Source of the DNA: a virus
Lineage: Duplodnaviria > Heunggongvirae > Uroviricota > Caudoviricetes
DNA length: 24,625 nt
IMG/VR virus record: IMGVR_UViG_2534681649_000014
Strand: one strand, 5' to 3'
Shown here one piece after another: positions 9,167 to 11,117 of the stretch. The notes under the pieces are model-generated. The model was not told the DNA's origin. It worked only from the letters and a program-made list of their open reading frames with translations, and did not search any database. Within the stretch, counting starts at the first letter, position 1, and every line of letters begins with the position of its first letter. Both the position numbers and the translations under genes were made by a program.

Positions 9167-9935
9167 TTAATACCTGTGACTATTTTTGATATAATCATAA
9201 ATACACACTAATTTGCAAAAATTACTTGACAACACCTGAGTATTCATAGCTTCATCTATATGTTTTTTCAATATTTTGAGAAGCTCTCCCATATCGCGCT
9301 TGATTAATCCAGGCTCCATATAAGGCATCATTCTTAAAAAGAAACTGAAATCATAAGCAAGATATAACTCATTGACCCCCACCTTGACCTCAGGAACGGT
9401 TTCAGAGCGTCGTTTATCCCATCCTTGAGACTGAAAACTAATAGGAGTGATATTTAATCGTGATAAAACGCCACCTGAGAGTTCTGTTTCATTAATTATA
9501 CTCCCATCAGGATTAATTAATTTAGCGTGATTTAAGAAGTGAAAAATAGGAATGCGCGCATTGCCTTTGCATATATTTGGCAAAACATCATTAACAACAC
9601 ATCCCCAATCATAATATCCATTTTCAAATACAACCTCTCGGATGAGATCTACACGCTCCAGTCCAACCAATCCTTTAGTTGCCATCGATTCCGATTTTTT
9701 TACCATCGAAATAGCACCATATCCCACAACAAACTCAGTTGTACTGACCCCTTCTTCAATTTTCTCTGAATCCCTCACATATAATTTTCCTTTCGGATCA
9801 TCAGTTAAGACCAACTCATAAAGTTCATCTTTTATCATTCGGAATAAATGTGCTGGAATCCTTTTTTTAGTTTCACTCAGCACCTCAAATATTTCTTTAT
9901 AGGATGGTGCCTGAACATATTTTACCGGGATTTTT
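9167..9935 (-). pseudogene. Low-GC gene fragment (C-terminal portion) abutting IS1; possibly the distal part of the IS1-disrupted SIR2-like gene
   Basis: The ORF 9167-9949 has its predicted start codon inside the IS1 terminal repeat, so the native N-terminus is missing. Host-encoded sequence begins at 9935. AT-rich. No recognisable catalytic motif. Confidence 0.45.
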
Positions 9936-9950
9936 GGTAATGACTCCAAC

Positions 9951-10454
9951 TTACTGATAGTGTTTTATGTTCAGATAATGCCCGATGACCTTGTCATGCA
10001 GCTCCACCGATTTTGAGAACGACAGTGACTTCCGTCCCAGCCTTGCCAGATGTTGTCTCAGATTCAGATTATGTCGCTCAATGCGCTGAGTGTAACGCTT
10101 GCTGATAACGTGCAGCTTTCCCTTCAGGCGTGATTCATACAGCGGCCAGCCATCCGTCATCCATACCACGACCTCAAAGGCCGACAGCAGGCTCAGAAGA
10201 CGCTCCAGTGTGGCCAGAGTGCGTTCACCGAAGACGTGCGCCACAACCGTCCTCCGTATCCTGTCATACGCGTAAAACAGCCAGCGCTGACGTGATTTAG
10301 CACCGACGTAGCCCCACTGTTCGTCCATTTCAGCGCAGACAATCACATCACTGCCCGGTTGTATGCGCGAGGTTACCGACTGCGGCCTGAGTTTTTTAAG
10401 TGACGTAAAACCGTGTTGAGGCCAACGCCCATAATGCGTGCACTGGCGCGACAT
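9951..10454 (-). CDS. insB: IS1 transposase InsB (frame expressed as InsAB fusion)
   Basis: 167-aa ORF (…[72 protein letters not shown]) matching IS1 InsB. Confidence 0.85.
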
Positions 10455-10648
10455 CCGACGCCATTCATGGCCATATCAATGATTTTCTGGTGCGTACCGG
10501 GCTGAGAGGCGGTGTAAGTGAACTGTAGTTGCCATGTTTTACGGCAATGAGAGCAGAGATAGCGCTGATGTCCGGCAGTGCTTTTGCCGTTACGCACCAC
10601 GCCTTCAGTAGCGGAGCAGGAAGGACATCTGATGGAAATGGAAGCCAC
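10373..10648 (-). CDS. insA: IS1 InsA (transposition inhibitor / N-terminal part of transposase)
   Basis: 91-aa [45 protein letters not shown]…, zinc-finger InsA of IS1. Confidence 0.85.
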
Positions 10649-10703
10649 GCAAGCACCTTAAAATCACCATCATACACTAAATCAGTAAGTTGGCAGCATT
10701 ACC

Positions 10704-11117
10704 AGAAATTTCATGTTTTAACTCATCATTATCTATAATATTTTTATGTGCATTCTCAATATATTTAGATATTGACAACTTCAAAGGAGACTGTTCGTTA
10801 ATGAAAGTTTTCTCCTGTTCTTTTTCACTTAATGCTAATTGTCCTTCTTCAGTATCCCACCATTTCTCAGCATATGCAGACACCAATAATTGTGCATATT
10901 CGGGTAAGTCACCATTAGATTTTGTTTTTAATTTTATATGATTTTCCCCAATTGCCTCAGCAAAATGCTTCAAAAGGTCTTGCCAACATGGCACACCAAG
11001 ATAACGACGAGACACACCGGAGCCGACAAATAACACTGGGGATGCTTCGAACTGCTTAAAATGCTCTTCGAGTTTTTTCTTAAAATTCATACGGATACTA
11101 TCTTTAAAAGAAATCAA
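10704..11117 (-). pseudogene. SIR2 (sirtuin)-like protein, N-terminal fragment truncated by IS1
   Basis: The ORF starts MISFKDS… and contains the glycine-rich sirtuin-type NAD-binding signature PVLFVGSGVSRRYLGVPCWQDLL. Near the break is NIIDNDELKHEI, which resembles the TTNYD-type motif of defence-associated SIR2 domains. The reading frame runs into IS1 and terminates at 10677 inside the element. Low GC. Confidence 0.5.

Follow-up and report, generated by a model that had tools for sequence, protein, structure and literature searches.

The window, i.e., the whole stretch of 24,625 nucleotides analyzed here (IMG/VR virus record IMGVR_UViG_2534681649_000014, Caudoviricetes), is of Shigella origin and carries a single SIR2 gene of the PDC-S25 family that was wrecked by IS1, probably through an adjacent deletion. 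The loss of this gene is ordinary insertion-sequence decay, a routine Shigella pseudogene, in line with the share of IS1 among the IS insertions of Shigella reference genomes (46-73%; PMC7373316). The gene remnants, the element between them, and the neighboring restriction-modification (R-M) and integrase genes are listed in Table 1; GC content is ~0.35 at 8-10 kb of the window vs. ~0.5 around it.

Table 1 Features of the SIR2/IS1 locus and its surroundings in the window.
Feature	Position	Strand	Basis
Type I R-M operon hsdR-hsdM-hsdS	2849..9042	+	Pfam; PADLOC REase_I 5e-274
hsdR	2849-6265	+	Pfam
hsdM	6329-7963	+	Pfam
hsdS	7960-9042	+	Pfam
C-terminal SIR2 fragment, CDS nt 822-1590, aa 275-529 + stop codon	9167..9935	-	colinearity
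Deletion junction, IRR end	9935..9936	.	comparison with intact E. coli gene
Complete IS1, 768 bp	9936..10703	-	inverted-repeat search; Pfam Zn_ribbon_InsA, HTH_Tnp_IS1, DDE_Tnp_IS1
insB	about 9951-10454	-	Pfam
insA	10373-10648	-	Pfam
N-terminal SIR2 (PDC-S25 family) fragment, CDS nt 1-387, aa 1-129	10704..11090	-	translation, colinearity, PADLOC
Tyrosine integrase of the island with the R-M operon and SIR2 gene	11481..12827	-	Pfam Arm-DNA-bind_3, Phage_int_M, Phage_integrase

The terminal inverted repeats of the IS1 element are 23 bp long (9936-9958 on the plus strand and 10681-10703 on the minus strand) and show 0 mismatches against the degenerate consensus, with 0 matches in the shuffled sequence used as a control for the search. 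IRL (10681-10703) adjoins the N-terminal gene fragment and IRR (9936-9958) the C-terminal one. Because insA and insB both lie on the minus strand, the element is transcribed in the direction of the SIR2 gene. Immediately outside its ends, the 9-bp sequences GGGATTTTT (9927-9935) and AGAAATTTC (10704-10712) do not form a target-site duplication, in agreement with the initial annotation, and this absence is accounted for by the deletion described below. Beyond the copy in the SIR2 gene, no further IS1 was found in the fetched loci.

Both flanks of IS1 are colinear with one intact E. coli gene (96.6-96.9% identity), and the edges of the alignment gap are the exact ends of IS1. Judged by this colinearity, the two low-GC fragments represent opposite ends of a single 1590-nt gene (529 aa); the right-hand fragment as a second, unrelated gene is ruled out by the same alignment to a single intact gene. 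The ORF on the N-terminal side starts mechanically at a TTG at 11117, while the gene itself most likely begins with the ATG at 11090 (MNFKKK...), where the intact homologue starts as well. This ORF enters IS1 for 8 codons and stops at 10677. Its region is colinear with L001 10472-11267 (96.6% identity), and it holds the Gly-rich NAD-binding loop FVGSGVS, so that the glycine-rich motif earlier reported in the minus-strand ORF from 11117 is present (FVGSGVSRRYLGVPCW). The exact 137-aa N-terminal product is on record as 'MULTISPECIES: hypothetical protein [Shigella]' in 351 contigs. On the other side of the element, the ORF at 9167-9934 (minus strand) is open over 255 codons and corresponds to aa 275-529 of the SIR2 gene, i.e., a fragment without its N-terminus, as first described. 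A Pfam search of both fragments gave no match, because the SIR2_2 model covers aa 138-260, which is the deleted part. The domain check proposed for the N-terminal fragment thus failed in Pfam and succeeded in PADLOC, where this fragment matches PDC-S25 (1.1e-36) and ThsA (1.5e-4), and the C-terminal fragment matches PDC-S25 as well (E = 4.8e-45).

At the IRR junction, 434 nt are gone (CDS nt 388-821, aa 130-274). The lost stretch encodes the entire catalytic core: all of the region covered by Pfam SIR2_2 is missing, and with it the invariant residues N143, D145, and H179, so that the Gly loop alone is retained in the window copy. Since 434 nt equals 3 x 144 + 2, the reading frame does not continue from one remnant into the other, and the gene is therefore dead. 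The alignment with intact homologues recommended by the initial annotation thereby sustains its central claims, namely a SIR2-like gene inactivated by IS1, fragments in different frames, and an event other than a simple insertion, the last on account of both the missing 434 nt and the missing duplication. Compared with the intact allele, the window has 30 synonymous changes against 6 non-synonymous ones, and the reading frame remains open in both remnants, which argues that the gene was functional until recently. The A at 10704 was considered as a non-templated junction base and rejected, as a T at CDS nt 387 also occurs naturally, as a synonymous variant, in the E. coli S43 allele.

The manner in which the deletion arose can be read from eight Shigella loci, in which the IS1 at the equivalent site is 99.7-100% identical to that of the window and likewise lacks a target-site duplication. 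The IRL junction, at which ...GAAATTTCT meets GGTAATGCTGCC, is identical in all eight. In contrast, IRR abuts CDS nt 822 in four of them (allele A, 434-nt deletion, as in the window) and CDS nt 737 in the other four (allele B, 349-nt deletion, with 85 nt more retained). Deletions nested on a fixed end are the outcome of IS1 adjacent deletion. Between the two routes first suggested, adjacent deletion and recombination between two IS1 copies, the two nested alleles with their common IRL junction favor the former. Under this model, IS1 would first have inserted at nt 387, presumably duplicating the 9 bp GAAATTTCT; intramolecular transposition from the IRR end into nearby gene sequence would then have deleted the intervening DNA together with one copy of the target-site duplication, as in the classical IS1 adjacent deletion. 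The deletion step would have occurred at least twice in Shigella, because sister genomes keep the IRL junction unchanged while their IRR junction lies 85 nt closer. The order of events is an inference, since the ancestral simple insertion (IS1, duplication, and intact downstream gene) was found in no genome among the complete E. coli genomes and the GTDB representatives: neither IS1 junction is present in 5426 complete E. coli genomes, and both the presumed ancestral junction (IRR followed by GAAATTTCT and CTTTTTGCGAAAGC, nt 388...) and the common IRL junction have 0 matches in the GTDB species representatives.

Alternatively, two IS1 copies that had inserted independently as direct repeats (one at nt 387, the other at nt 736 or 821) could have undergone homologous recombination, with loss of the intervening DNA and one IS1. 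This would also leave no target-site duplication and breakpoints exactly at the IS1 ends, and we consider it unlikely. IS1 prefers T/A-rich targets, and both IRR-side targets are of this kind (TGGATTTTT, AAAAATCCC); with the very high IS1 load of Shigella (PMC7373316), two insertions in one AT-rich gene are conceivable. However, such a history needs three independent insertions within 450 bp and two recombinations, whereas adjacent deletion needs one insertion and two deletions, and a gene with two IS1 copies was seen in none of the eight Shigella loci.

The R-M operon lies directly beside the SIR2 gene and is convergent with it. The island integrase is called as 422 aa in Shigella records, and a homologous integrase adjoins tRNA-Leu in E. 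coli 1105. The initial annotation had placed the SIR2 gene in a defence-island context; this placement holds, although a functional tie to the R-M operon does not follow from it, given that most E. coli with this R-M operon lack the SIR2 gene. In other E. coli strains, the slot after hsdS is occupied either by a pair with matches to PDC-M01 and weaker ones to PtuA (Septu), or by an ATPase matching PDC-M55A/NsnB/AriA. The slot between hsdS and the island integrase is a swap site for defence cargo.

This arrangement raises the question of whether the SIR2 protein works in partnership with the Type I R-M system next to it, as a second-line suicide effector that fires on R-M inhibition, like PrrC with EcoprrI, such that its loss would alter the R-M module. 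Such a partnership would agree with the fact that every E. coli SIR2 copy found by megablast immediately follows hsdS of this R-M type in convergent orientation, across ~10% divergence of the SIR2 DNA, and that the order hsdRMS then SIR2 recurs in E. coli on islands at pheV, leuX, and selC, three different tRNA sites. We nevertheless hold it to be very unlikely: among 427 E. coli genomes that carry this hsdM, the SIR2 gene is present in only about one-tenth, and other cargo takes its place in the slot; the homologues in Vibrio, Aeromonas, Pseudomonas, and Marinobacter (50-79% identical) are stand-alone, with neither a conserved neighbor nor an R-M neighbor; and hsdR, hsdM, and hsdS are all open in the window despite the dead SIR2 gene. 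The stand-alone homologues in other genera and the other cargo in the slot rule out an obligatory linkage. Thus, the link of the SIR2 gene to Type I R-M is real but not obligatory, and the gene is independent of the R-M system. A more specific version, in which a PrrC-like back-up effector is wired to the DUF4145-HsdR Type I R-M system, depletes NAD+ when the R-M enzyme is blocked by a phage anti-restriction protein, and is costly and hence repeatedly shed by Shigella through nested IS1 deletions, is highly improbable because of the same stand-alone homologues and the interchangeable cargo. The strict adjacency of hsdS and SIR2 in the three E. coli islands is compatible with a PrrC-like reading.

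Intact E. coli copies of the gene have ~97% DNA identity to the window, encode 529 aa, and are annotated 'SIR2 family protein' (e.g., WP_001009620.1). The intact homologue matches Pfam SIR2_2 (PF13289) with 90.1 bits over aa 138-260, against a gathering cut-off of 24.5 bits, and the PADLOC profile PDC-S25 with E = 1.4e-164 over aa 1-526 of 529 (profile 8-515 of 517); weaker PADLOC matches to ThsA, Dsr1, and LmuA are confined to the SIR2 part. The protein consists of an N-terminal SIR2 domain with a sirtuin Rossmann fold, which contains the Gly-rich loop and the putative catalytic Asn143 and His179, and of a helical C-terminal domain (aa 365-529). Across 40 homologues, G23, G25, S27, N143, D145, and H179 are invariant. 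The fold is nearest to the defence NADases KomC and ThsA, while structural comparison of the all-helical C-terminal domain gave no informative or specific match. The PDC-S25 SIR2 gene is a candidate for an anti-phage NAD-destroying enzyme: the intact protein would be a phage-triggered NAD+ hydrolase that aborts infection, and its C-terminal domain may act as the sensor or regulator of the SIR2 NADase. A housekeeping or regulatory sirtuin (protein deacylase or ADP-ribosyltransferase), whose loss would be unrelated to phage defence, is suggested by the UniRef name of one truncated homologue ('NAD-dependent protein deacylase') and by the immune function being predicted only, yet it is quite implausible, since the nearest relatives by structure and sequence are all defence NADases (KomC, ThsA, AVAST5, DSR2, and Nezha), the Pfam family is SIR2_2 and not the deacetylase family SIR2, and the gene occurs sporadically, has a low GC content, and is found on islands and in integron-like cassette arrays next to TA and defence genes.

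The PDC-S25 family has no NCBIfam model, and our literature search found no experimental report on it. The name 'PDC-S25' is mentioned a single time, in an O157 preprint that lists it among PADLOC predictions; the PADLOC web-server paper gives no definition of the PDC names, and the WP_ accessions are mentioned in no paper. A Vibrio NAD-depletion paper was rejected as a source on the family, its subject being Nezha (SIR2-HerA).

For a specialist, these findings hold nothing surprising. They provide a clean, datable case in which a candidate immune gene was destroyed by IS1 in Shigella C1/S1, a lineage undergoing genome decay. The two nested alleles offer lineage markers as well as a natural record of adjacent deletion by IS1. 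WP_001009620.1, the product of an intact, highly conserved E. coli gene, is a ready test case for the candidate PDC-S25 family as a compact 529-aa SIR2 protein with a helical C-terminal domain. The hsdS-integrase slot of this island type emerges as an exchange site for defence cargo.

Among known systems, the closest counterpart is PDC-S25 itself, a PADLOC candidate single-gene system: the intact homologue matches the profile end to end, and the window fragments match both of its ends. As here, PDC-S25 consists of one gene with no conserved partner, whereas the window copy differs in being a pseudogene without aa 130-274. By sequence, the closest SIR2 domains are those of ThsA, the SIR2-SLOG NADase of Thoeris (PDB 6lhx, 2.7e-13), and of KomC from Kongming (1.9e-11), and the intact protein has the Asn/His catalytic pair in common with both. 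However, the SLOG domain of ThsA is absent from it, the C-terminal half being all-helical instead; no gene for a TIR-domain ThsB was present in any fetched neighborhood, and no KomA/KomB-type partner genes were nearby in the neighborhoods examined. DSR1 and DSR2 likewise combine, in a single protein, an N-terminal SIR2 NADase with a helical, solenoid-like region at the C-terminus; that of DSR2 is described as binding a phage tail-tube protein (PMC11850899). The similarity to them is restricted to the SIR2 domain, with the Dsr1 HMM match (1.8e-12) and the DSR2 PDB matches confined to aa 20-243 and 137-235, and beyond this domain neither the sequences nor, to any significant degree, the structures resemble each other; at 529 aa, the intact protein is also half the size of these proteins (~1000-1230 aa). 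In SIR2-HerA (Nezha), the HerA partner lies beside SIR2, whereas none lies beside the SIR2 gene here; the HerA-like yjgR in L003-L007 was rejected as a partner, as it is a core gene outside the island, with the integrase between yjgR and the SIR2 gene.

With respect to its destruction, the locus resembles the classical IS1 adjacent deletion, in which the deletion begins exactly at the IS1 end and no target-site duplication is left, as here, and in which related genomes share one junction but differ in the other, as in the eight Shigella loci. The same holds for IS-driven gene loss in Shigella (PMC7373316): the host here belongs to the IS1-expanded Shigella lineage, and in this respect the window shows nothing unusual.

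The IS1 element, its flanks, the two gene fragments and the motif FVGSGVSRRYLGVPCW in the N-terminal ORF are all present in the window as the initial annotation described them (TTG at 11117 is the mechanical start of this ORF), with no match to the IS1 terminal repeats expected by chance. The region of the fragments has a GC content of ~35% vs ~50% around it. Of 5426 complete E. coli genomes searched with megablast, ~30 match both flanks at 90-97% DNA identity; the matched stretch there exceeds the summed length of the window flanks, IS1 excluded, by ~430 bp. In E. coli 361, the intact gene (1590 nt) encodes a 529-aa 'SIR2 family protein' (WP_001009620.1); the left flank of the window is colinear with this locus to 10036 and the right flank from 10471/10472. 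Nucleotides 1-387 and 822-1590 of the CDS are kept, nt 388-821 (434 nt) are missing, and the remnants are out of frame because 434 = 3 x 144 + 2. On this alignment, the two fragments are one gene with a 434-nt hole, and the proposal of a SIR2-like gene inactivated by IS1 with a rearrangement is upheld in all its parts. The gene-orientation base beside IRL, the terminal inverted repeat adjoining the N-terminal fragment, is T in the window and C in E. coli 361, a natural synonymous variant, since the E. coli S43 allele has T too. Relative to the E. coli 361 gene, the remnants have 30 synonymous changes, 6 non-synonymous changes, and no stops, indicating purifying selection until the gene was hit.

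Features of the window and of two E. coli loci (positions in the respective sequence)
Feature	Position	Strand	Remark
IS66-family transposase	7-1038	plus	island left edge
IS3-family orfB	1063-1881	minus	island left edge
IS3-family orfA	1931-2218	minus	island left edge
hsdR	2849-6265
hsdS	7960-9042
SIR2 C-terminal fragment	9167-9934	minus	255 open codons, then stop
IS1, complete	9936-10703		768 bp; terminal repeats, Pfam ORFs
IS1 terminal repeat, 23 bp	9936-9958	plus	0 mismatch to consensus
InsB	9951-10454	minus	Pfam
InsA	10373-10648	minus	Pfam
IS1 terminal repeat, 23 bp	10681-10703	minus	0 mismatch to consensus
SIR2 N-terminal fragment	ATG 11090, into IS1 at 10703	minus	translation, MNFKKK...
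P4-like satellite prophage	12900-24625
Direct repeats, 120 nt	13162-13281; 13343-13462
Satellite primase alpha	13507-15840	minus
Satellite delta	19184-19684
Satellite psu	19758-20330
Satellite psu-int interval, two low-GC genes and a third ORF	20728-23305
Third ORF, psu to int	22274-23305
Satellite integrase	23360-24625	minus	cut by window end
Cargo between hsdS and island end, L026 (E. coli)	8177-10695
Cargo between hsdS and island end, L027 (E. coli)	8213-10580

In the intact protein, Pfam SIR2_2 matches aa 138-260 with 90 bits (cut-off, 24.5 bits), a region inside the deleted aa 130-274. Across 40 aligned homologues (35-79% identity to the first sequence), the Gly-loop residues G23, G25, and S27 are invariant and retained in the window copy, and N143, D145, and H179, also invariant, are all deleted. 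It is the loss of the SIR2_2 region and of these three residues that explains why neither fragment has a Pfam match while both match the corresponding ends of PDC-S25, a PADLOC candidate single-gene phage-defence system (1.1e-36 and 4.8e-45). The window copy cannot be an enzyme. By descent, the remnant belongs to the SIR2_2/PDC-S25 family: PDC-S25 aligns with the intact protein over its full length (1.4e-164), and ThsA (4.7e-22), Dsr1, and LmuA align more weakly, with its SIR2 part only; no NCBIfam model covers it. When 5.8 billion proteins were searched, 1571 of the 8000 candidates scored were homologues at E < 1e-5; they come from Vibrio, Aeromonas, Pseudomonas, Marinobacter, Halomonas, Tenacibaculum, Variovorax, and others, most full-length homologues among the matches listed being 520-530 aa long. 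In the AF2 model (pLDDT 83), a SIR2 Rossmann domain (~1-285) is connected by a disordered linker (319-362) to a C-terminal domain that is helical; canonical sirtuins score only 8-10, and a PDB sequence search agrees.

The N-terminal ORF encodes 137 aa, 8 of them contributed by IS1, and exactly this product is recorded on 351 contigs as 'MULTISPECIES: hypothetical protein [Shigella]', with related cluster members named S. boydii, S. flexneri, and S. dysenteriae, and the 260-aa C-terminal ORF corresponds to ABB68588.1 and relatives. Neither IS1 junction occurs in the 5426 complete E. coli genomes searched. Judged from these sequence matches, the wrecked gene is of Shigella origin. All eight Shigella loci retrieved (L002-L009) carry IS1 at the same position, with an identical IRL junction (...GAAATTTCT followed by GGTAATGCTGCC). 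In allele A (window, L002, L006, L008, L009), IRR, the repeat adjoining the C-terminal fragment, is joined to CDS nt 822 (434-nt deletion), and the P4-like satellite lies beside the integrase. In allele B (L003, L004, L005, L007), IRR is joined to CDS nt 737 (349-nt deletion); these genomes are without the satellite, and their island integrase adjoins core genes, namely an ADH-type gene at the ahr position and HerA-like yjgR, with lptFG also in this context. Identity among the IS1 copies is 99.7-100%, and the insertion is thus ancestral to both alleles. In L003, L005, and L007 (~14900-18320 each), the neighbouring hsdR is split into 2-4 ORFs, and the island integrase of L005 and L007 is split too; in these allele-B genomes the entire island is decaying.

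No target-site duplication flanks the element, the nine bases beyond its ends being GGGATTTTT and AGAAATTTC. Nested deletions with one IS end in common and different endpoints at the other are the classical product of IS1 intramolecular transposition (adjacent deletion), a process that also eliminates the target-site duplication. The second allele, with its nested deletion and shared IRL junction, therefore favours adjacent deletion, which is the probable origin of the gap. IS1 would have inserted once in the SIR2 gene, ancestral to both alleles, and two adjacent deletions would then have arisen from it, either sequentially (B then A) or independently. Recombination between IS1 copies is an unlikely source of the deletion, as it would take two recombination events in addition to three insertions in a 450-bp stretch, whereas adjacent deletion needs one insertion and two deletions. 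Neither complete E. coli genomes nor GTDB species representatives yielded the parental simple insertion. The missing duplication and the 434 nt lost bear out the earlier view that this is not a simple insertion but an adjacent deletion or IS1 recombination. In Shigella reference genomes, IS1 makes up 46-73% of IS insertions, and it drives convergent gene loss (PMC7373316), biology that the wreck of the SIR2 gene fits.

In all three E. coli islands examined, at tRNA-Phe (by yqgA), tRNA-Leu (by ahr), and tRNA-Sec (by yicJ), the SIR2 gene directly follows hsdS, convergent with it, in one R-M type (HsdR of 1137 aa with N-terminal DUF4145). The hsdM of this type occurs in 427 E. coli genomes, and only ~1/10 of those sampled also have the SIR2 gene. 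In other strains, the slot after hsdS holds different defence-type cargo, namely an ATPase matching PDC-M55A/NsnB/AriA with a 298-aa hypothetical protein without a match, or an ATPase and HNH pair that matches PDC-M01A/B and, more weakly, PtuA (Septu). The neighbourhoods examined for the Aeromonas, Pseudomonas, Marinobacter, and Vibrio homologues contain integrases, TA pairs, or ordinary housekeeping genes; no R-M system adjoins these homologues, and no partner is conserved. Together with the alternative cargo, this makes the SIR2 gene an autonomous cassette. Of the defence-island context proposed in the initial annotation, the adjacency to a Type I R-M operon is real, but it is that of a defence cargo slot, a positional link and not a functional dependency.

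The hsdR, hsdM, and hsdS genes of the window are all still open. HsdR carries DUF4145 at aa 25-112, and its first 212 aa match the PADLOC candidate PDC-M16A (1.2e-40), an extra N-terminal module on the Type I restriction subunit. HsdS has 360 aa vs 372-396 aa in the E. coli islands sharing hsdR and hsdM, between whose strains its sequence varies; such variation is the expected swap of target-recognition domains, implying different specificity. At its left edge (7-2218), the window lacks other gene content that flanks hsdR in E. coli islands. The satellite lies in tandem with the island. Its psu-int interval, the known P4 defence hotspot, contains two low-GC genes that match PDC-M18A (6e-39) and PDC-M18B (3e-15), a candidate two-gene system in PADLOC, and a third ORF with no Pfam or PADLOC match. 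Just beside its primase gene, the two direct repeats, 81% identical and spaced at 181 nt, resemble in layout the P4 crr replication region.

New relative to the initial annotation are the exact span of the deletion and what it removed, the family assignment, the origin in Shigella, the second allele, and the positional nature of the R-M link. The literature search found no experimental paper on the PDC-S25 family. Among known SIR2 systems, identity with SIR2-HerA is rejected as the HerA partner is absent, with ThsA as both the SLOG domain and the ThsB partner are absent, and with DSR1/DSR2 as the intact protein is half their size and its homology is confined to the SIR2 domain. It does share with DSR proteins the combination of SIR2 and a helical C-terminal region, resembling a half-size DSR; DSR2 binds the phage tail tube through its alpha-solenoid C-terminal domain (PMC11850899). 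By analogy, the intact protein may be a phage-triggered NADase. PDC-S25 is a known candidate defence family, and the window is a new, well-resolved case of a known type of event.
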